Shown: positions 52,218 through 62,482, numbered from the stretch's first letter. The stretch is DNA of 64,000 nt from Promethearchaeia archaeon (GCA_029856045.1 JAHQWG010000016.1:256001-320000); one strand, 5' to 3'. Translations and numbers: made by a program. The notes: generated by a model not told the origin, from the letters alone.

Positions 52218-52949
52218 TTACCACTCTAGGAATCCTGGGTCATCAAATACCTCTTCAAGCGTTTTATCTTTTGCTAACTTTTCTTCTCCTTCTATTTCTT
52301 CTTTAAAATCAACACCATAATCTTCTTGTTTTATTTTTTCACGTAATTCTCTTTCTAAAAGTATAAAGTGTGCTGCCTCATCTCTCCATTTATTAGATTC
52401 TTCTAGTAATTCTTTCTCTCCTGTTGAAATATATTCCTTAGATAATTCTGCCGCTTTCATTTTTGTAATATCTGATAGAAGTGAATAAGTTAAAGCTAAT
52501 TCACTCCAGTTTTTCTCTTTTTCATGTTCTTTTATATTTCCCTTTAAACGATGATATTCTTGATCTTTAAAATATAAATCAATAAATGATCCATAAAAAT
52601 CTACAGCAGCTTCAATAGAACGGGCTAAAACCTCTTTTTGTAATCCGCAAGTTCCGCATTTAACTTCAACCAAATTGACAATTTTATCCTTTAATTCAAC
52701 TTTCTTTATTTTTCCGCCACAAATAGAGCAGTTTTTTACATTTTCTCCGTTTATATCATATAAATCATTTGCTGAGCGTAAGTACACCTCCCATTCTAGC
52801 CCACAATCAACACATTTTATAGAATATGCAATTAGTTTGATCTTCTTCTCTATTTTAACTGATTTAGCCCCGCACTCAGGGCATGTAAAAATTTTTGGCA
52901 GTTTGCGGATTTTTCGATAAACCTTCTTTCTTTTCTTCCTTCGACCCAT
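52218..52949 (-). CDS. elf1: Transcription elongation factor Elf1, extended
   Basis: MGRRKKR...LPKIFTCPECG...C..CG...VD.Y..FID, with four extra Cys and an acidic helical tail of about 110 aa. Confidence 0.8.
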   Translation of the reverse strand: MGRRKKRKKVYRKIRKLPKIFTCPECGAKSVKIEKKIKLIAYSIKCVDCGLEWEVYLRSANDLYDINGENVKNCSICGGKIKKVELKDKIVNLVEVKCGTCGLQKEVLARSIEAAVDFYGSFIDLYFKDQEYHRLKGNIKEHEKEKNWSELALTYSLLSDITKMKAAELSKEYISTGEKELLEESNKWRDEAAHFILLERELREKIKQEDYGVDFKEEIEGEEKLAKDKTLEEVFDDPGFLEW

Positions 52950-53167: not shown

Positions 53168-54274
53168 TTGGAAGAAATGGAACAGCATAAGCAATTATCC
53201 ATTGAATTAGATAAAAATCTTATAAATAAAGTATTTGAAAATGTAGAGATGCGCTATATTCTATTATATCTTTACATAGTTCGAAATGATATGTTAAAAA
53301 ATTTATCAGATGAATCTTGGCTCCATTCATTTAAAAGATTAATGAATTTGGATGAAATTCTCAAAAGCGATTTGGAATTATATTCAAATAAAGAACTGAC
53401 CGAAATATTAATAGATTTAGGAATAATTAAAAATTTAAGATCTTTAAAAGAACTGGAAAAGAAAGAAGATGATTTTTTAATTAAAACTTTAGAACCAATA
53501 AGAATCGAAGATAATAAGATAATTGTTCCAGAAAATACATTATTTCCTATTATCTCAAAAAAATTTCCATTTCTAACAAAACGAAATTTTCACTATGCCA
53601 TCTCAAGGTTAAAAGGTATAATGTGCGAAAATAGCGATGTAATTCATCCTTTTCTATTTGAAATTGGTAAGGAAAATTATTTATTAGCAGACGATCTATA
53701 TGAAATTTTAGATGATTTAGGAAATCCATATCAAACAATAAAGGTCGAAATCACTATTAGTGAATTTTATAACAGGTTTAAAGAATTATTAGAAAAAGTC
53801 TCGATTTTCTTAGAACTATATGATCCTTTATTAAATAAAAAATCAAATCTCAGAATTATCAAAGAGGCAATAGACAATAATAAAGTCATTCTTGAATTTA
53901 TGCAAGAAAAGGTAAAAAAATTGCCTGCTAAATTTGATCTGGAGGATGTAGTAGATAAAGAAAATGAAATTTTTAAAAAATGGCATTCTATACTTATAAA
54001 TTTACTTAAAAAACGGAATAGATTAAATGAAATTGATGAAGAATTAAGTAAAATTAAAAATTACTATTCTGGAAAGGGAAAAAAATATACCTATTTAGAA
54101 TTTATTACTAAAATATCATACAATGAAGATAATATCTTAAACCAAATTAAAGATAGACTGATAGAATTAAGAGAAGAATTAGTAAATATCAAAAAAGAAG
54201 TATCTAAATTTGAAAAAAATGAAATAAAACTGCTTAATTTAGATTATGAACGATTTAGAATTATAAATGAATAA
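53168..54274 (+). CDS. Hypothetical protein (possible wHTH plus coiled coil), gene 1 of the cluster
   Basis: 368 aa with a C-terminal coiled coil; TTG start after AGTAGG. Confidence 0.6.
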   Translation: MEEMEQHKQLSIELDKNLINKVFENVEMRYILLYLYIVRNDMLKNLSDESWLHSFKRLMNLDEILKSDLELYSNKELTEILIDLGIIKNLRSLKELEKKEDDFLIKTLEPIRIEDNKIIVPENTLFPIISKKFPFLTKRNFHYAISRLKGIMCENSDVIHPFLFEIGKENYLLADDLYEILDDLGNPYQTIKVEITISEFYNRFKELLEKVSIFLELYDPLLNKKSNLRIIKEAIDNNKVILEFMQEKVKKLPAKFDLEDVVDKENEIFKKWHSILINLLKKRNRLNEIDEELSKIKNYYSGKGKKYTYLEFITKISYNEDNILNQIKDRLIELREELVNIKKEVSKFEKNEIKLLNLDYERFRIINE

Positions 54275-54290
54275 ATAAGGAAGGTGCCCG

Positions 54291-55262
54291 ATTATTAACT
54301 GCCCTGTATGTAACGTTGAGATGGAACAACTCGTTCAAGAAATATTTCAATGTCCAAAGTGTAAAAAAATTATTAAAGGACAGATTAAAGAAATTAAAAA
54401 AAAGAAAGAAGTTGCTGTTGGAGAAATTCAAGAAGGAGATTATTTTCATAACAACGCTAGTTTAAATAAGAAATATGAAATTTGTGAAAAAGGAATTACA
54501 ATATCTAAATCTCCAAATAGGTGGGTGGCAGCATTACTCTGTCATAGCTCCTATTTAAGCAGCTCTAAATATATCAGACTTAGTTGGTGGAAAAAGGAAA
54601 TAAATACACATGCAGGCTTTTTCAAAATAACTGAATCTATAGTATTGGATAATTTAATCAAATCCTTAAAAAAAATAAATTCTTCATTTGATGAGTATTG
54701 GGGTAATTTTAAAGGATTTGAAAAAAAAAAAATAGAAACAGAAGAAAAAGCAATTCAAAATGAGCGTCTAAAAATTCTAAAGTATAGAATTCTCGAAAAT
54801 AAAATTTGCCCGAATTGTAGTAAAAAATTATCATTAAGTAAAAGAAAAACACATTATGAATGTGAACACTGTGGCGAGATCATCATCTTGGAATCTCATA
54901 ATGAACCTATTTTTAATATTGATCCTAAAGATCTCTCATTAGAATTCTCAACAAATTTTCCTATCAACTTTTACCTCCCCGTAGCGGGTATTACTATAGA
55001 ATGGTTAATGAGTTTATGGAAAGCTATAGTTGTTATATATTCAAAAGATAACCCCAATAAGAAATGGTTAAGATTCTATGCTTGGGAAAGGAATTTGCAA
55101 CAACTGCTAAAATACGGATATTATGAAGCCGGTGATGGAGGACAATTATCTTGGACTACAAAAAAAGGAACAGGCTCACCTAATATTTTTGATAAATCAG
55201 AAGTCCCTATTCTAATAGATGCTCTAAAAAAGCTTCAGAAAGAAATAGGTTGGGTTAAATAA
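54291..55262 (+). CDS. Zn-ribbon protein with two related PC4-like segments
   Basis: The upstream in-frame CPVC pairs with CPKC; a second ribbon is CPNC...CEHC. Repeated W.A.......K.(I/L)R..WW/YAW segments, each followed by L...LKK. Confidence 0.6.
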   Translation: MINCPVCNVEMEQLVQEIFQCPKCKKIIKGQIKEIKKKKEVAVGEIQEGDYFHNNASLNKKYEICEKGITISKSPNRWVAALLCHSSYLSSSKYIRLSWWKKEINTHAGFFKITESIVLDNLIKSLKKINSSFDEYWGNFKGFEKKKIETEEKAIQNERLKILKYRILENKICPNCSKKLSLSKRKTHYECEHCGEIIILESHNEPIFNIDPKDLSLEFSTNFPINFYLPVAGITIEWLMSLWKAIVVIYSKDNPNKKWLRFYAWERNLQQLLKYGYYEAGDGGQLSWTTKKGTGSPNIFDKSEVPILIDALKKLQKEIGWVK

Positions 55263-55302
55263 GATATAAATTTATACAAAAGATTATGATGTGATTGAAT
55301 AA

Positions 55303-56445
55303 ATGAGTGGAATCGATAATCTTGAATGGGAAAAATTGTTGACTGAATTCTCTAAAAATGTTGATAAATCTCTCAAGAAACTTGAAGAAAGAGATATTGA
55401 TAATATTCCTGGTGCTAAACAAGCCTTGGTTGAGAGATTACGAGTTATGAGAGATTATTTTCCACAAAATAACGGAGATCTCTTTATAAAATCAATTAAT
55501 GAGAAAATTCAAAATGCATTTTTCCCAAAAACCAAAGATCTAGCTGAAGCATTTGAGCTAATTTTAAAGTCACGCTCTCATGATCAAGATTTTATAATAA
55601 ATGAATTAATTAATGGTTTTATATCATCAAGAAGCAAAACAATTGCTTTAAATGTTCAAGGAACTGTTATTGATAGAATGGTTGAGGCATTTAGTAAAGG
55701 ACCGGATTTTCAAATTGTAGATCATCAATTCTATGCAATGTTTTCCGACCCCAATAAAGCACGCAAATATGTAAAAGAAAGTTTGCAAGACCTTGTGGAT
55801 TTATTTGGTTTAGAAGCGAAAGAATTAATTGTTGAAAAAGATAAAAGGAAAAGCGAGCGAAAAGTTTATACTTTTTACACGTTTCCCGAAAAAATATTAG
55901 AAATTTTAGAAGGTGAATATGTTGATACTGATGATGTACTCGGAGAAAAAAGGGTTTCAGAAAAATTCGATAAAACAGTTTTCATATCTTTGTTTTTAGC
56001 CAATATATCAGTTCACAGAGATGATTTAAAGAAAATAGGTGGAGTATATACTATAAACGGCATCTGTAGCATATTTAGTTTAATTCTTTTGATCTCGCTT
56101 ATGCCTAAATTGGAGGTAAATGAGACCAATCCAGTCTTAAGAGACCCAACTTATAACCCTGAGACAATGAGTATTATTCCAAAATCATGGATGATGAAGG
56201 AAATTCTGTTGGATTTATTGGAACCCCTAATAAATATTGTAGCATATAGATTGGGTGGCGGAGAATGGTTAAAATCGGTTGAAACCTCTGAGGTTAAAAA
56301 AAAGATACACAATCAAATACGGTTTCTTATCAAAGACGTAAATAAATGGGTATACGGACAGTTAACAAGAGTGGAAATTCCCATATTCATTGAAATCTCC
56401 AATATTTTCGCTGAGGTATTGATTGACTATTCTACAGGGGAGTAA
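55303..56445 (+). CDS. Hypothetical protein, gene 3 of the cluster
   Basis: 380-aa, mostly helical ORF. Confidence 0.6.
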   Translation: MSGIDNLEWEKLLTEFSKNVDKSLKKLEERDIDNIPGAKQALVERLRVMRDYFPQNNGDLFIKSINEKIQNAFFPKTKDLAEAFELILKSRSHDQDFIINELINGFISSRSKTIALNVQGTVIDRMVEAFSKGPDFQIVDHQFYAMFSDPNKARKYVKESLQDLVDLFGLEAKELIVEKDKRKSERKVYTFYTFPEKILEILEGEYVDTDDVLGEKRVSEKFDKTVFISLFLANISVHRDDLKKIGGVYTINGICSIFSLILLISLMPKLEVNETNPVLRDPTYNPETMSIIPKSWMMKEILLDLLEPLINIVAYRLGGGEWLKSVETSEVKKKIHNQIRFLIKDVNKWVYGQLTRVEIPIFIEISNIFAEVLIDYSTGE

Positions 56446-56471
56446 AATTAAATACTTAGGGGGAAATTAAT

Positions 56472-57740
56472 ATGGTTAGAGAAAGATGGACAGACATTTT
56501 AGCTAGATACTTAACATATTTAAGTCATCTGGTTCCAATTCTCAAAGAAACAAAGAAAACTGTCCAAAATATGAGTTTGGAAGTGATGATGGACGTAAAG
56601 ATTTTTGATAAGATTAAAATGGACGAAGAAAAACGATTAGTGAAGAAAGTGAGGGCTTTATCCGAATTCTCGGCATATTATAGAGGTGAAGTATTTGAAA
56701 ATATAAAAAATTTTATATACAAATATGCTGAGGATTTAGAACCTATAGATATTAAAGATTATCTAATTGAATTTTTTGATGAATGCATAAGTGCTTTAGA
56801 AATATTAATGAATGTTACAAACCCAGATCAAAAAAAATTAAATTCCACATATTTATATCTTCTTTACAAATATTTAGAAGATCTTTTATTACCTATAGGT
56901 AAAAATTTTGAAGAAATTTACATGAAGTTGAATAAAACATCAAAAAATTGGCATGAATGTCAAAGGTATATGATGATTCCTCATACATATTATAGGGAAA
57001 CTGTGGATAACCCCGATTTCTTCGAAATTCCCGGTATTTCTCCAAAATTATACCAAATAATTAATAATATAACCTCTTTATACAACTTGGATCCTAATTA
57101 TTATCCGTGTCCTGAAGATTCTAACATAGAAATTCCAGTAGTCTTGATTGAAGATGTTTTTGAAGCATTTATTGATAATATTGCTCATGAAGAGCAAGAA
57201 GCAGTTGAAAAAATTTGTGAACGTTTAGGATTAAGAGTTCTAGATGGGATTTTTCTTGCTCCCAAGTATGATTTTATAGATGTTCTAATTAAACTTGATT
57301 TCCTTAGAGAGAATAAACAATCTGATGGCAAGATTAGATTAATACCTCAATTCAGTAATGAAACTTTAATTTTAAGTTATCTAGCGTTCGTTTCTTTCCG
57401 TCGAGGTTTTTTATCTAAAGAATTAATTAATTGGATTTCTATGACATTTGCGTTCATTATTTTTTCAACGATTTTAAAATCTCAATTAAGTGATCATAAT
57501 ATTTTCTATCCTATTTTTACTGGTTTGAAAACTCAAGAAAAAGTAATACCTTATATGATGAAACTTCTATGCTTTAATAATTATTTGAAATTAGATAGGA
57601 TGAAAATACGAGATTCTGTCCAGTACAGAAAAGAAATTTTTAATTTTGCAGGATCTAGCATAGATTGCATTAAGCAATTAATTTTAGATTTAAGTGAATA
57701 TTTAAAAGAAATAAAAAAAAAAAAAAAAGAAGGGGTGTAA
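56472..57740 (+). CDS. Hypothetical protein, gene 4 of the cluster
   Basis: 422-aa ORF with AGGGGGA upstream. Confidence 0.6.
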   Translation: MVRERWTDILARYLTYLSHLVPILKETKKTVQNMSLEVMMDVKIFDKIKMDEEKRLVKKVRALSEFSAYYRGEVFENIKNFIYKYAEDLEPIDIKDYLIEFFDECISALEILMNVTNPDQKKLNSTYLYLLYKYLEDLLLPIGKNFEEIYMKLNKTSKNWHECQRYMMIPHTYYRETVDNPDFFEIPGISPKLYQIINNITSLYNLDPNYYPCPEDSNIEIPVVLIEDVFEAFIDNIAHEEQEAVEKICERLGLRVLDGIFLAPKYDFIDVLIKLDFLRENKQSDGKIRLIPQFSNETLILSYLAFVSFRRGFLSKELINWISMTFAFIIFSTILKSQLSDHNIFYPIFTGLKTQEKVIPYMMKLLCFNNYLKLDRMKIRDSVQYRKEIFNFAGSSIDCIKQLILDLSEYLKEIKKKKKEGV

Positions 57741-57746
57741 GAAAAA

Positions 57747-58823
57747 ATTACATATTCAGATGATGAAATTAAAGAAAGGCTTGATAAGTATGGAACGGTT
57801 TATTTACCAAATGAAATTATAGAGAATGTTGATGATATTTTAGGAAATGAGATTCTAAAGGAAAGGCTTGAAGATTTTTTCAGTTCCTTAAAAAAATATA
57901 GTGAAGTTGTTGAAAAATTAAAAAAGACTAAATTAGTCCCAAATTTAACTGTCCTCCTATATGGACCACCTGGAACTGGAAAAACTTCTTTAGCTCGAGC
58001 ATTTGCAAAGGAATTTGATATCCCATTGTGTGTAGTAGAGTCTGACAGATTAGTTTCTGCATTATTAGGCGATACCGTTAAAAATATTAGAAAAGTTGTG
58101 GAATTATCAGCTCAGATTGCGGAAGAAAATGGAGCTTTTATATTGTTTTTTGATGAAATTGATGCAATTGCATCCGAAAGATCGAATATTCACGAAGTAG
58201 GCGAAATTAAAAGAGCTGTAATATCTTTCTTACAAATAATTGATAAAATAAACTACTTTGGAACACCATTAGCAATTTTAGGTGCTACTAACCATCAAGA
58301 CCAATTAGATTCTGCAATTTGGAGGAGATTCACATTTCATTTGAAATTTGATTTTCCTACATTTCATCTCAGGAAGAAAATAATTGAGGCTTTTATTAAT
58401 AAAATTAGTAACGCAAAAATTGGAGTAGATGATGTAATTCTTGTTAGTTTAAACAAAGAATATGCATTATTAAAATCTAAGGAAGAAAAATTAAAGCCTA
58501 TAGTAAGAAATGAAAAATATTCACAAGATTTGGATGAATTGTGGAATGATAAAAAAATTATCGAGAATAGAGGAATTTTATTTTTAACGCGTGGATACAC
58601 AGGTGCAGATTTAGAGCGTGGAGTGAGAGTTGCTCTGTTTAAAGCATTAAAAAATGACATTTTAACCTATGAAAATTTTACCCATTCCTTAGAATTAGTA
58701 GGAGGTACTAAAATCCATGTTGAACAACAATATTTTTTGAGTGTTTCTGAAAGGAAATCTTCCAGGGATAAAAAAATATCAAGAATAAACAACAACAATC
58801 TGGAAGGTCCTCGTGAAATTTAA
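57747..58823 (+). CDS. AAA+ ATPase; the real N-terminus lies upstream of the track start
   Basis: In-frame Walker A YGPPGTGKT near 57960 precedes the track's TTG at 58026. Also has FFDEID and ATNHQDQLDSAIWRRF. Confidence 0.88.
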   Translation: MTYSDDEIKERLDKYGTVYLPNEIIENVDDILGNEILKERLEDFFSSLKKYSEVVEKLKKTKLVPNLTVLLYGPPGTGKTSLARAFAKEFDIPLCVVESDRLVSALLGDTVKNIRKVVELSAQIAEENGAFILFFDEIDAIASERSNIHEVGEIKRAVISFLQIIDKINYFGTPLAILGATNHQDQLDSAIWRRFTFHLKFDFPTFHLRKKIIEAFINKISNAKIGVDDVILVSLNKEYALLKSKEEKLKPIVRNEKYSQDLDELWNDKKIIENRGILFLTRGYTGADLERGVRVALFKALKNDILTYENFTHSLELVGGTKIHVEQQYFLSVSERKSSRDKKISRINNNNLEGPREI

Positions 58824-58884
58824 TAATTAATTTTTTTAAAAATCTCCTATTGATTATATAAAAATACAAGTAAAAAATCGAAAG

Positions 58885-59952
58885 ATGGAATCAGAGAACA
58901 TAATCTTTTCTGCAGAAAGAATAAAAGGATTAACTAATCCTATTGATAAAATTCGAGGAAAATTAAATTTAATTAATAAATTATATCTCAATTATAAAGA
59001 AACTCTAAAAAATTTACTTAAAAAACCCAATCTAATAGAGAATGATAGAATAAAATTCTTTAATGATTTAGATAACACATTAGAAGAAATATATTCAAAA
59101 TTATCCAAAAACTCTGAACTTAACTTAGAAAATTGGTTGTCAATTAAAGATTTACTTTTATCTGAATATATTCTTTCAATAAAAAACATTTTAACAGAAA
59201 AAAAAATTTCTCAAGATTCTCTTAAAAAAGTTGGTATTTCATTAATTAAAAACAAGAAAGTATCATCTTTTTTAGAAAAAACAAGTTTTATTTTTTCACT
59301 CGATGTTGATTTTTGGGAATCAATAGTTAATTCATTAAAAAATAACCCTGATTTTCTAAAAACCCTAAATAAAATAAAAAAATTTTGTCAAAATGAGAGG
59401 GAACGAATATTAAATATTGAACTAAATAAAATTCCTAAAAACATCGACTATAAAATTATCAATGAGTTTAAAAAAGAATTCAGAAAAAACAAAATTTCTT
59501 TTAAAGAATTCATGATAACTTCAGAATCCAGATTTCCTAAAACTAAATTTGCCACCCAAAAGATTACTTTAGACACAAAAAAGAAAAAGAATGAACTTGA
59601 TATATTAAAAGAAAAACAAGAGACACGATTCAAATCTTATGATAAATTATTTACTCTTTCCGAAGATGAATTTCAAAGATTAAAACGTAAAAAAAAAAGA
59701 AAAAAATTAGATTCTTTATCTAAATTAGAAAAAAAAGAATACCCTCCTGATGATAAAAAAAAGGAGAAGGACAAGAAAGAAGAATCAACCCAAACCACAA
59801 AACAAGATATATTTAGTAGAGATATAATAGAAAATAATGAAGCTGATATCGATCCTTTAGAAGTTATTAGAAAAAGAAAGCAAAAAAAGGAAGAAGAATT
59901 TGAAAAACACTTAAATAAAATTCAAAAAAAAAATAAAAGAGGTTCAAACTAA
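58885..59952 (+). CDS. Hypothetical helical protein with a charged low-complexity tail
   Basis: 355 aa with a K/E-rich C-terminus. Confidence 0.55.
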   Translation: MESENIIFSAERIKGLTNPIDKIRGKLNLINKLYLNYKETLKNLLKKPNLIENDRIKFFNDLDNTLEEIYSKLSKNSELNLENWLSIKDLLLSEYILSIKNILTEKKISQDSLKKVGISLIKNKKVSSFLEKTSFIFSLDVDFWESIVNSLKNNPDFLKTLNKIKKFCQNERERILNIELNKIPKNIDYKIINEFKKEFRKNKISFKEFMITSESRFPKTKFATQKITLDTKKKKNELDILKEKQETRFKSYDKLFTLSEDEFQRLKRKKKRKKLDSLSKLEKKEYPPDDKKKEKDKKEESTQTTKQDIFSRDIIENNEADIDPLEVIRKRKQKKEEEFEKHLNKIQKKNKRGSN

Positions 59953-61514
59953 TTAATTCTGGTTCATTTGTAATAAAAATAAAAGATTTTTCAGTGGAAA
60001 TTAAAAATAAATTTAATATTATTCAAGGCAAATTTCTTTCTCAGGATTTAAATCAACTTCAATTGGGCAATTATATCCACCTTCTTGATGATGTTCCAAA
60101 AATAAGCTTAGAAAAGTTACTGATTTTATATAAAAATAATTCAAAAGGACAGAAAAATCTAATTGACAATATTAATTTTATTGAATTTATAGCAAAATAT
60201 ACTCAAATAACTCAAAAAGATATTAAATTTTTAGATAAATATATCTCTTTTTTAGAAAGTTGTATTTCACTATTAAGATTAAACCAGCTCAATCTTGAAA
60301 AAAAAAAATTAAAAACCGAACTAAAAATTGCCCAAGAAAGAAATAAATCAGCAGAAATTTCTACTAAAATAACTCTATTAAATAAATTAAACGAATCAAT
60401 TAAAGAATACAACACTAGATTAAAACTTTTTGAAGAGGATTTTTTACCCATCAAAAATCAAAAAAAAATGCTTGAAGACAAACTTGGGAATTTAAAAAAA
60501 ACACAAATTGAATTTAGAAAAGAACAAAAGGATATTTTTAATAAGATTAATATTCTTACTCGAGAAGAAGAGAGCCAAAACAATGATCAAAATGAAAAAA
60601 TTGAGACCCTAAGGAAAAATGCTAAAATTCTAAGAGATAAAATTGATGATATCAAGCAAAAAATTGAAAATTCCCAATATAAATTAAATCAGAATTTGCC
60701 GAAATTTAAAGAATTTGATAAAATTTATCATAACCTAAAAGAAAATCTTGAAATTGATAAGAAAAAAATGAGAAATCTTCGAATAGAATTAGAAGAAGTT
60801 ATTGATTTAAATAAATTGGATGAATTAACAGAATCTGGTTTAAAAGAACTATCTTATATAAGACCGATAAGCTTAATCAAATCAAATATTGATAACATCA
60901 CTAATGAAATAATAAAAATTGAAAGTTTCAATCAAAAGTATTTTAAAAATAAAAATAATCTCTTAATAAAAGATTTAAAGATGTTTAAATCCAATTTAGA
61001 CAACTTTTTTTCGAATCAGTTGGAAGAATTCGATAGTAATGAGCTTGAAAGCAAAATAAAATCTTTAAAGAAATTAGGTATTTGGCTATATAAATTCCAA
61101 AAATTACTAAATGAATTTTTGGAAACGATTAATTTAAAAATCTCTATTGATTTTTTTTTAAATTTGACACCAAATTTTGCTAAAAATAGTCAGATTATTA
61201 TAAATTTCAAACGTTTTAAAGAAGAAGCTATCATTTATGATAATTTAACTACTCCTGAGAAGGTATTTTTTATAATATGTTTTTACTTAACCATTGAAAG
61301 TCTTAAAAATAAAAGAAACATCATTTTCACAAATCTTATAATACCTGAGGATTATAACAAAAAAGGTTCTATTTTTAGAACTTTAACAAAAATTATGCCT
61401 ATTTTTAATGAAAGTCCAGATTTAAAGGAGAAATCATTAACTTTTCTAATTTCTGGATTCAAACTAACAAAAGATATCAAAAATGTTCAAATATATAATA
61501 TAAATAATACTTAA
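59952..61514 (+). CDS. SMC/Rad50-like coiled-coil protein with degenerate ATPase head motifs
   Basis: N-terminal IKIKDF..VEIKNKFNIIQG, a long coiled coil, and C-terminal NLTTPEK.FF..C..L.I, NIIFTNL and SLTFLISG. The track starts at GTG 59994. Confidence 0.6.
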   Translation: MNSGSFVIKIKDFSVEIKNKFNIIQGKFLSQDLNQLQLGNYIHLLDDVPKISLEKLLILYKNNSKGQKNLIDNINFIEFIAKYTQITQKDIKFLDKYISFLESCISLLRLNQLNLEKKKLKTELKIAQERNKSAEISTKITLLNKLNESIKEYNTRLKLFEEDFLPIKNQKKMLEDKLGNLKKTQIEFRKEQKDIFNKINILTREEESQNNDQNEKIETLRKNAKILRDKIDDIKQKIENSQYKLNQNLPKFKEFDKIYHNLKENLEIDKKKMRNLRIELEEVIDLNKLDELTESGLKELSYIRPISLIKSNIDNITNEIIKIESFNQKYFKNKNNLLIKDLKMFKSNLDNFFSNQLEEFDSNELESKIKSLKKLGIWLYKFQKLLNEFLETINLKISIDFFLNLTPNFAKNSQIIINFKRFKEEAIIYDNLTTPEKVFFIICFYLTIESLKNKRNIIFTNLIIPEDYNKKGSIFRTLTKIMPIFNESPDLKEKSLTFLISGFKLTKDIKNVQIYNINNT

Positions 61515-62045
61515 TTGAGAAAGAGAACAATGAACAATCCAAATATAAACAATATTGATAATTTAGTGAAAAAATTTTGTAAAATTTTTCTCATTAATGA
61601 AAAAAAAATGATAAGGGAAAGAGATCTTATTGAAATGTGCTCAAATCCAGAAAATTTTGATAATATTATTAAAAAAGTATATAATAATCTAAATAATATT
61701 GGATTTGAATTAGTTAAAACCTCGTACCTAGAAGAAAAATATTATATATTAACAACTGAAGGTAAAGAAAAAGCCTTATCTCCTATTCTTTATGGAATTC
61801 TCACATTAATCGTTGCTTTAAATAATGAAATAGGTGAAAATTTAAATTATTTCGAGTTAAAAAATATTCTAAAAGATGTATGGGAAAATGTTGAATATTT
61901 AATAAAAAATAATTATTTAGCTCAAATAAAGAGTAGAGATCATCATCTAATTAAAATTACTCCTATAGGTAAAGGTGTTTTAAAAAATATAATTTCTGAA
62001 ATTAATTTAAAAAAAATTTTAGAAATTTTTGAAAAGACAAATTAA
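61515..62045 (+). CDS. Tandem winged-helix protein, KITE (NSE3/MAGE/ScpB/MukE)-like
   Basis: IRERDL, FDNIIKKV...L..IGFELV....YYIL, GILTLIVAL, YLIKNNYL, ITPIG. Confidence 0.6.
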   Translation: MRKRTMNNPNINNIDNLVKKFCKIFLINEKKMIRERDLIEMCSNPENFDNIIKKVYNNLNNIGFELVKTSYLEEKYYILTTEGKEKALSPILYGILTLIVALNNEIGENLNYFELKNILKDVWENVEYLIKNNYLAQIKSRDHHLIKITPIGKGVLKNIISEINLKKILEIFEKTN

Positions 62046-62482
62046 ATACTCTTACCTTCCTTAAGATCAAGGACAAATTGTTCAGAAATCTTCTGTATTC
62101 TTTCTGCTGAGGGCCCTTCCCCAATCACTTCGATTTTTCCATCTTGTTCCTTAACCTTTATTTTCCCATTTAGAATACTTATTATAGATAATTCACTTTG
62201 ATAATCAACATGTCCTTTAGGGAATATTTTAGCAATTCGATCTGCCAATGCTTCCATAGGAAACGGCTCTTCTTCCACTGTAATCATTTTCCATACACCT
62301 GAATGCATAATAACCTTAGGAATTACTGCTCCTTTCTCGTTTTTAGCATTCTCAATTATAATATCACCAGAATCGGAAACACCTTTAAGAGTTCCCACAA
62401 AAAATTTATCATCAGATATATGAATTTTTACAAGTGCATCCAATAGATTACCAAGTTCTTGATTATAATTTCTTAGCATCAT
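62042..62482 (-). CDS. Sm-like protein with a C-terminal domain (SmAP3-type)
   Basis: ELGNLLD..V.I.....F.GTL.G....DIIIENA Sm fold, followed by IFP..V.Y...I.ILN...V.GEGP.AER. Confidence 0.8.
   Translation of the reverse strand: MMLRNYNQELGNLLDALVKIHISDDKFFVGTLKGVSDSGDIIIENAKNEKGAVIPKVIMHSGVWKMITVEEEPFPMEALADRIAKIFPKGHVDYQSELSIISILNGKIKVKEQDGKIEVIGEGPSAERIQKISEQFVLDLKEGKSI

Follow-up and report, generated by a model that had tools for sequence, protein, structure and literature searches.

The window analysed here, a stretch of 64,000 nucleotides from a Promethearchaeia archaeon (GCA_029856045.1, JAHQWG010000016.1:256001-320000), is part of contig C27 of an Asgard genome of 3.34 Mb and about 26% GC (G000). 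Eight open reading frames (ORFs) of the + strand, named g1 to g8, occupy positions 53168–62045 of this window (Table 1), and encode among others a protein related to the family of structural maintenance of chromosomes (SMC) proteins (g7), a KITE-like protein with two winged helices (g8), an AAA+ ATPase (g5), and a Zn-ribbon protein (g2). A previous inspection of the same DNA without database searches, called here the sequence-only reading, had described eight co-directional genes separated by gaps of about 60 bp or less, and bounded by a divergent elf1 gene and a convergent SmAP3 gene. This layout was recovered in our analysis, with gaps of 0–61 nt when an ATT start codon is used for g5, and with both flanking genes in the expected orientations, the family match of the Sm-like one being weak. 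The cluster is a real, conserved, and undescribed variant of an SMC-KITE system, as detailed below.

Table 1. Genes of the eight-gene cluster and of its two flanks, in positions of the window (aa, amino acids).
Gene	Position	Strand	Product and remarks
elf1-like	52218-52949	-	Zn-ribbon protein; flank, divergent from g1; PF05129 E 2.5e-16
g1	53168-54274	+	368 aa, no known family
g2	54321-55262	+	313 aa, Zn-ribbon protein
g3	55303-56445	+	380 aa, orphan family
g4	56472-57740	+	422 aa, orphan family
g5	57747-58823	+	Classic-clade AAA+ ATPase, ~358 aa, probable ATT start
g6	58885-59952	+	355 aa, helical N-terminal part, specific to the type-A cluster version
g7	59973-61514 (ATA 59973 or GTG 59994)	+	Predicted mini-SMC, ~506-513 aa
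g8	61515-62045	+	176 aa, predicted tandem winged-helix KITE-like protein; first base directly after the g7 stop
Sm-like (SmAP3-type)	62042-62482	-	Flank, convergent, 4-nt overlap with the g8 stop; Lsm_C E 4.4e-5, below cut-off

The sequence of g7 compared by itself with SMC models gave coiled-coil noise only. However, a structure predicted with AlphaFold2 (AF2) from 18 orthologs (predicted local distance difference test score, pLDDT, 84.6) showed an N-terminal beta lobe, two antiparallel helical arms of about 140 residues each, linked by a short loop at residues 198–203, and a C-terminal alpha/beta head lobe. Nearly all of the 40 Foldseek matches of this model at E <= 1e-3 were heads of Rad50, Smc, Smc5/6, LmuB, JetC, MukB, cohesin, or condensin, the leading ones ranging from 1.7e-7 to 1e-3, with Rad50 on top. 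The same model submitted to VIA-align, a search independent of Foldseek, returned matches dominated by the coiled coil (PI3K p85 iSH2, chemoreceptors), so this search was uninformative on the head and was set aside. In the alignment of the 18 orthologs (A1), the position of the Walker A motif is taken by TLILGKF, that of the LSGGxK signature by LTTPEK, that of the Walker B motif (hhhhDE) by IIFSNL, and that of the H-loop by FIIS(N/G), and the catalytic motifs are gone in every one of the orthologs. Neither model nor alignment contains a hinge or a zinc hook, the apical region being variable in length and lacking a conserved Cys pair, and PF06470 matches just two other genes of the genome. The gene is the fastest-diverging one of the cluster (26–35% identity between genera), and its frame is intact in nearly all genomes; invariant or near-invariant residues include LTTPEK, YNK(R/K)GSxxRT, a conserved Pro, and a Ser. 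Taken together, the model and the alignment support g7 as an SMC/Rad50-type head with an antiparallel coiled coil, that is, a hinge-less and ATPase-dead mini-SMC.

Two winged-helix domains in tandem make up the AF2 model of g8 (pLDDT 81.6). Its top Foldseek matches were MAGE-G1/Nse3 (1.3e-5), Nse3 (7dg2_C, TMq 0.54), archaeal ScpB (2.2e-4), Nse1, and several MAGE proteins, while JetB and MukE ranked further down. The wide VIA-align search likewise placed MAGEG1 first (Z 9.8, root-mean-square deviation, rmsd, 16.9, 148 aligned residues), followed by Nse1 (Z 9.7, rmsd 4.0, 151 aligned). No match of g8 to the ScpB family was detected. An assignment to ESCRT-II/Vps25 was considered and rejected, as the ESCRT-II matches rank beneath the KITE ones and the neighbouring gene is an SMC. 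The predicted fold thus supports g8 as a tandem winged-helix, KITE-like protein, closest to Nse3/MAGE and Nse1.

The third recognisable component, g5, carries a Walker A motif (GPPGTGKT), a Walker B motif (FFDEID), a sensor-1 (TNH), an arginine pair (WRRF), and a sensor-2 (GYTGxDxxR), and it matched PF00004 with an E value of 8e-14 on the truncated ORF. GPPGTGKT, DE, TNH, RR, and GxDxxR were invariant in an alignment (A13) that covers this ATPase and its counterparts from both cluster versions defined below. Its best family matches were the PADLOC model of IetA (E 3.1e-60) and the NCBIfam model IteA (184.8 bits vs. a cut-off of 510 bits), with scores well above those of Cdc48, PAN, or CdvC, and it also matched a phage family of unknown function. 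By its motifs and family scores, g5 is an intact classic-clade AAA+ ATPase, nearest to those of the IetA type. The presumed pore-loop 1 reads LLG and contains no aromatic residue. Pfam and PADLOC searches of the eight genes detected neither an IetS-like protease nor any other effector domain. Therefore, the SMC-like protein without ATPase motifs, the tandem winged-helix protein beside it, and the AAA+ ATPase of the sequence-only reading were all supported, the first two at the level of predicted folds and the last one with all its catalytic motifs retained.

Conservation of gene order across Asgard genomes, proposed as a check of that reading, was strong. In tblastn comparisons of all the genes with 18 fetched loci, the order upstream gene, elf1 (−), g1 to g8, Sm-like gene (−), and downstream gene was the same throughout, in 13 genera of the family of the window genome (f1). 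The order elf1 (−) followed by g1 to g8 is also kept in a second family (f2), in which the outer flanks differ; elf1 adjoins g1 in both families, and the Sm-like gene, adjacent to g8 in f1, is set apart from it by extra genes in f2. A recurrence of the g1–g8 order of this extent goes far beyond what chance would produce. The cluster occurs in a single copy, and the g7 protein was present in 22 of 24 other f1 genomes, spanning 13 genera. With a profile of g4, matches were obtained in 110 of the 126 genomes of f1 and in 10 of the 13 of f2, and no match was seen in 11 genomes belonging to five further families of the class. The broader profile of g3, with 136 places matched in the genome collection, gave 52 of 54 f1 genomes, 4 of 5 f2 genomes, and none of 191 genomes from 26 other families of the phylum.

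Outside the genus of the window genome, identities ranged from 45 to 68% for g1–g5, and from 26 to 49% for g6–g8 (tblastn). Compared with a congener, dN/dS values were 0.13–0.23 for g1–g5 and 0.32–0.33 for g6–g8 (0.32 for g7), a rough estimate from a single same-genus pair, in which the values indicate purifying selection on all eight genes. Apparent losses of the cluster in G024 and G090 were discarded, as in both genomes a contig ends at the flanking gene, the one of G024 breaking off within elf1; these absences are probably assembly gaps and not losses. In addition, a contig labelled 'Candidatus Nanopelagicaceae bacterium' (DATKTW010000134.1, L078) encodes a g3 protein 64% identical to that of the window, and is probably a mis-binned Asgard contig. 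Similarly, metagenome-assembled genomes (MAGs) titled Thor-, Hermod-, Hod-, or Odinarchaeota (L083, L086, L109, L135) contain f1-like copies, about 62% identical, and their names look unreliable.

Distant members of the g3 family led to a second and rare version of the cluster, highly diverged and with a full-length SMC, which we call type B, as opposed to the common type A with the mini-SMC. Six such clusters were found (L060 from genome G032, L154, L067, L068, L064, and L156), with 23–47% identity and 25–40% GC. Their order is g1-g3-g4-AAA, followed by an SMC of 1000–1200 aa and, where the contig continues (L060, L067, L154), by two proteins of about 280–320 aa each, X and Y, and a KITE of 160–190 aa; a g2 homolog lies nearby in L060, L068, and L154. 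The type-B SMCs present invariant GRNGSGKS, SxGQKQ, and IDEFD motifs and a hinge-like segment, and the one from G032 matched yeast Smc5 and Smc6 best among PDB sequences, although only narrowly above prokaryotic Smc. In hhalign comparisons, based on small alignments, g7 matched the type-B SMC profile with a probability of 93% (E 3.3e-7), with LTTPEK aligned on the SxGQKQ signature, and g8 matched the last type-B gene with a probability of 97.6% (E 2.7e-12); single-sequence comparisons of the G032 proteins were too insensitive. No hhalign match was found between g6 and type-B X or Y.

The complete genome of G032, a member of f2, carries a type-B cassette in inverted orientation at the type-A locus (L060, G032:C1:1130000-1149999). 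There, g1'-g3'-g4'-AAA'-SMC (1057 aa)-X-Y-KITE is bordered by a type-A-like g2 on one side and by what is left of a type-A g8 (60 residues) on the other, an arrangement that suggests a cassette exchange and interchangeable type-A and type-B versions. As it is not plausible for a dead ATPase to have given rise to an active one, type A would derive from a type-B-like ancestor, and the AAA module would be older than the loss of the SMC motor. The sequence-only reading had imagined a separate AAA+ motor accompanying an ATPase-dead SMC arm. The pairing itself holds, as a dead SMC lies beside an intact AAA+; what does not hold is the idea of the AAA+ as a substitute, since the same module accompanies motif-intact SMCs in type B, and hence it appears as an ancestral partner rather than as a stand-in for the ATPase that the SMC has lost. 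The f1 ATPases end in a C-terminal tail, GP(P/R)EI, missing from those of type B (A13), which may serve in docking. The type-A ATPases also carry about 35 additional residues inserted in their lid region (C-terminus of g5, 58600–58823; A13).

The remaining five proteins of the cluster gave less information. The N-terminal half of g1 is conserved, with invariant H7, D15, R39-N40-D41, C153, and H160, and its C-terminal part looks helical; its orthologs are 45–51% identical across genera, and divergent homologs head the type-B clusters. No match of g1 to Pfam, NCBIfam, PADLOC, or PHROG families was detected. The invariant cysteines of g2 (alignment A7) form a CPxC near the N-terminus and a C4 ribbon (C163, C166, C181, C184), in agreement with the Zn-ribbon protein of the sequence-only reading, and each Cys motif is followed by a Trp-rich segment (RLSWWKK and WLRFYWW). 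Searches with g2 against families and PDB sequences returned weak Zn-ribbon matches and nothing else, and the source names that describe a function for its 314 homologs, from Promethearchaeota MAGs and metagenomes, are all 'hypothetical protein' or an automatic Zn-ribbon label.

Mean column identity reaches 80% in g3, which is among the two best-conserved genes of the cluster, and 79% in g4. The g3 family comprises just 41 clusters among 1.84 billion representatives. The profiles of g3 and g4 cross-match each other's genes (L064, 4714–9328; L156, 2098–7047), and some clusters hold a third upstream member, so the two appear to be distant paralogs. As for g6, which is restricted to the type-A version and is also present in f2, its N-terminal part is helical, and alignment A5 shows a region rich in Lys and Arg (EFxRxxRKKxRxKL) as well as a conserved DPLExIRERK motif. 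Profile searches of g1, g3, g4, g6, g7, g8, and type-B Y against PDB sequences retrieved nothing or coiled-coil noise; g1, g3, and g4 had no PDB relative in them, g6 had no family or PDB match past coiled-coil noise, and no usable match to g4 or g6 was found in the ESM Atlas.

A kleisin, which the sequence-only reading had sought in the 368-aa g1 product or in another of the helical proteins, was not recognised. Kleisin families matched none of the 18 g6 orthologs in a Pfam scan, nor g1, which showed no detectable kleisin feature, and g6 matched neither these families nor type-B X or Y. A weak match to Nse4_C (E 1.4e-3) was obtained in one of three type-B Y proteins. Prediction of a complex of the N-terminal and C-terminal parts of g7 with g8, and g6 as partner, was uninformative, as the score did not differ from that of a control in which one of the kept chains was swapped.

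The genome of the window encodes further SMC proteins. A canonical, hinge-bearing SMC gene adjoins an ScpB gene elsewhere in the genome, with a further ScpB match at another site; consequently, the eight-gene cluster would be an additional SMC-derived system and not the condensin of the cell. A second full-length SMC (L158, G000:C41:112000-120727) matched the type-B SMC profile with a probability of 99.8%, and its contig ends just past the SMC gene, ahead of any kleisin or KITE gene. Upstream of it lies a gene for a 438-aa protein with only a faint resemblance to an AAA lid and, farther up, one for an Eco57I/TaqI-type DNA methyltransferase.

Archaeal SMCs related to SMC5/6 were defined by Yoshinaga and Inagaki (2021, PMC8665677). 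According to a preprint (bioRxiv 10.1101/2024.01.07.573240), TACK and Asgard archaea hold two complete SMC-kleisin-KITE operons, and extra, Asgard-only KITE paralogs near Nse3 are co-localised with further SMC and kleisin genes. In its main text the term AAA is absent, and no truncated, motif-less SMC is described. Our literature searches found no description of an AAA-linked cluster or of a dead mini-SMC.

The closest relatives of the cluster seem to be these SMC5/6-related archaeal operons and the eukaryotic Smc5/6-Nse1-Nse3-Nse4 complex. Shared with them are an SMC-fold gene beside an Nse1/Nse3-like tandem winged-helix KITE, and a type-B SMC that scores best against Smc5 and Smc6 and is homologous at the profile level to g7 and to the second SMC of the genome. 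In contrast, g7 is of about 510 aa, hinge-less, and without Walker A, Walker B, or signature motifs, no kleisin was recognised, and the cluster has five fixed extra partners, g1–g4 and the AAA+ ATPase; the type-B clusters resemble an SMC5/6-related operon far more closely. Smc-ScpAB is similar to the cluster in the head and coiled-coil design of its SMC and in the size of its KITE (about 170 aa), and archaeal ScpB is among the g8 Foldseek matches, but the cluster lacks an ScpA-like gene, an SMC ATPase, and a hinge, and g8 gave no match to the ScpB family. Wadjet (JetABCD)/MksBEFG and Lamassu (LmuABC) also combine an SMC-family protein with small partners, and JetC, JetB, MukB, MukE, and LmuB were found as structural matches. 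However, PADLOC detected no match to JetA, JetB, JetC, JetD, LmuA, or LmuC in the cluster, and its LmuB matches were weak and outside g7 only (g2, E 0.094; g5, E 0.0011). Among the eight genes, neither a Toprim nuclease nor another effector is present, the SMC ATPase is predicted to be dead, and the cluster is near-universal in its lineage.

With IetAS, formed by the AAA+ ATPase IetA and the protease IetS, the likeness is limited to g5, which is nearest to the IetA/IteA models; its score falls far under the equivalog cut-off of the latter, no IetS-like protease was found, and the partners are wholly different. The archaeal herA-mre11-rad50-nurA operon offers another comparison, as it encodes the SMC-like coiled-coil protein Rad50 together with a separate hexameric ATPase. 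Both loci join such a coiled-coil gene and a separate ATPase in one operon or operon-like unit, Rad50 being in addition the top Foldseek match of g7. Unlike the proteins of our cluster, HerA is not a classic-clade AAA+ and Rad50 has an active ATPase as well as a zinc hook, and a family scan found no Mre11 or NurA nuclease domains in the cluster.

On these grounds, the reading that we prefer, with somewhat more belief than doubt, is that the cluster encodes an SMC-KITE system descended, with remodelling, from one of the SMC5/6 type and permanently coupled to a module formed by g1–g4 and an IetA-like AAA+. The genes g1–g8 would constitute one conserved, vertically inherited, operon-like unit of one order of Loki-type (Promethearchaeia) Asgard archaea, whose products would act as a single complex, as far as can be judged from the sequences. 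In type A, the SMC would have shrunk to a hinge-less head plus coiled coil of about 510 aa with no ATP-binding motif, with the KITE retained, while X and Y of the full-size version, one of them perhaps a kleisin, would have disappeared, and a new basic helical protein, g6, would have been placed ahead of the mini-SMC. Together, the mini-SMC and the KITE, probably with g6, could bind DNA passively, as a clamp or scaffold. The sole ATP-driven part would then be the AAA+ hexamer, which, guided by g3 and g4, might remodel, load, or release this scaffold or targets bound to DNA, with g1 and g2 taking part in the recognition of nucleic acids or targets. Given the separate canonical Smc-ScpB locus, a role in DNA maintenance or in the control of extrachromosomal DNA, as for Smc5/6, would be likelier than bulk chromosome condensation. 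A more specific proposal, which we regard as unlikely, is that the AAA+ hexamer with g3 and g4 is dedicated to the ATP-driven loading, unloading, or recycling of SMC5/6-type complexes, and that it arose in Asgard archaea before the SMC motor was lost, so that the energy input of type A would be wholly external and the SMC-family complex would work with no ATP hydrolysis by the SMC.

Several observations weigh against a remodelled, AAA-coupled SMC5/6-type system. Insertions of 2–9 kb break the cluster in four genomes, between g5 and g6 in G014 (L053, ~8.4 kb), between g3 and g4 in G019 (L054, ~8.8 kb), and between g2 and g3 in G011 (L024) and G139 (L051) (~1.8 and ~2.9 kb, respectively), which implies that co-transcription is not obligatory. 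The neighbouring genes are likewise syntenic within f1, and this weakens synteny as functional proof in that family. Inside one f2 genus the locus varies, as G028 carries type A and G032 type B, and no cluster was found in G025, a variability that also fits an accessory or defence role, and the best family match of g5 is an anti-phage ATPase. As no kleisin was identified, a ring-type SMC mechanism cannot be assumed, and g1–g4 and g6 are without fold assignment. Apart from this, the cluster copy of G014 was seen to have diverged further than that of its congener.

Some of these points would be explained by an SMC-type defence against viruses or plasmids, similar to Wadjet, Lamassu, or Smc5/6 restriction, in which the mini-SMC and the KITE would sense foreign DNA and the IetA-like AAA+ would trigger or execute the response. 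The anti-phage and phage-family matches of g5, the existence of several defence systems headed by SMC-family proteins, with LmuB and JetC among the g7 matches, the faster evolution of g6–g8 compared to g1–g5, the exchange of type A for type B in G032 with its variable congeners, and the foreign DNA inserted within the cluster in four genomes all agree with such a role. However, the eight genes lack a nuclease, a protease, or any other effector domain, the AAA+ is the only PADLOC match counted and its companion IetS is missing, and g3 and g4 are conserved at about 80% per column. Defence systems are typically patchy, whereas this cluster is near-universal, single-copy, and in a fixed position across a family, so we consider a defence function fairly unlikely.

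The same insertion that parts g5 from g6 in G014, with both sides retained, could also mean that two unrelated modules are merely neighbours, namely an AAA+ machine (g1–g5) with substrates of its own and a relic SMC-KITE pair (g6–g8), with no joint function. The different evolutionary rates of both parts and the synteny of the flanking genes within f1 point in the same direction, but six very divergent type-B clusters again combine g1, g3, g4, and AAA with an SMC, three of them also showing a homologous KITE, and the pairing persists in f2, where the outer flanks are lost. This repeated linkage would be hard to explain otherwise than by a shared function, which makes mere neighbourhood improbable. 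Finally, the loss of all the ATPase motifs and of the hinge, together with the fastest divergence of the cluster, might be expected from a decaying pseudo-SMC carried along by its neighbours without any function of its own. Such a decay is hardly credible for g7, in view of its frame, intact in nearly all genomes, its invariant residues, its dN/dS of 0.32, and its confident fold prediction.

The activity of SMC complexes is believed to depend on an ATPase cycle of their own. A strongly conserved SMC-KITE pair devoid of such a cycle and always beside an intact AAA+ would be a central chromosome machine powered in a different way. As the lineage belongs to the archaea closest to eukaryotes, the resemblance of the KITE to Nse1 and Nse3/MAGE, and that of the type-B clusters to Smc5/6, bear on the origin of Smc5/6 and its accessory subunits. 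Members of this archaeal group are now culturable, which makes the question testable, and the four or five orphan families of the cluster (g1–g4 and g6) are new targets for structure determination.

With respect to gene boundaries, the frame of g5 is open from 57741, immediately past the g4 TAA, and contains no ATG, GTG, or TTG until 58026, a start that would leave a gap of 285 nt to g4. Orthologs of g5 share a conserved N-terminus, (M/I/L)TYSDDEIKERLGKYG, which in the window begins at ATT 57747 and in the congener with TTG, so a non-canonical start is likely, and it leads to the short intergenic gaps given above. In orthologs, this first codon is ATG or TTG, and in several other genomes it is an Ile codon (L021, L026, L029, L032, L034, and L038 were examined). 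The 3' end of g4 (57713–57740) consists of an unbroken A17 run encoding a poly-Lys tail, followed by GTG TAA, and this homopolymer could be prone to sequencing error or slippage. The g4 stop lies two codons ahead of the g5 start in the same frame, and a read-through fusion of both genes was rejected because the common frame is not kept in other genera. For g7, the reading frame extends back to 59937, and conservation sets in about seven codons upstream of GTG 59994; many of its orthologs have no canonical start close to the first conserved strand. In this cluster, starts at non-canonical codons, or else translational coupling, seem to be common.

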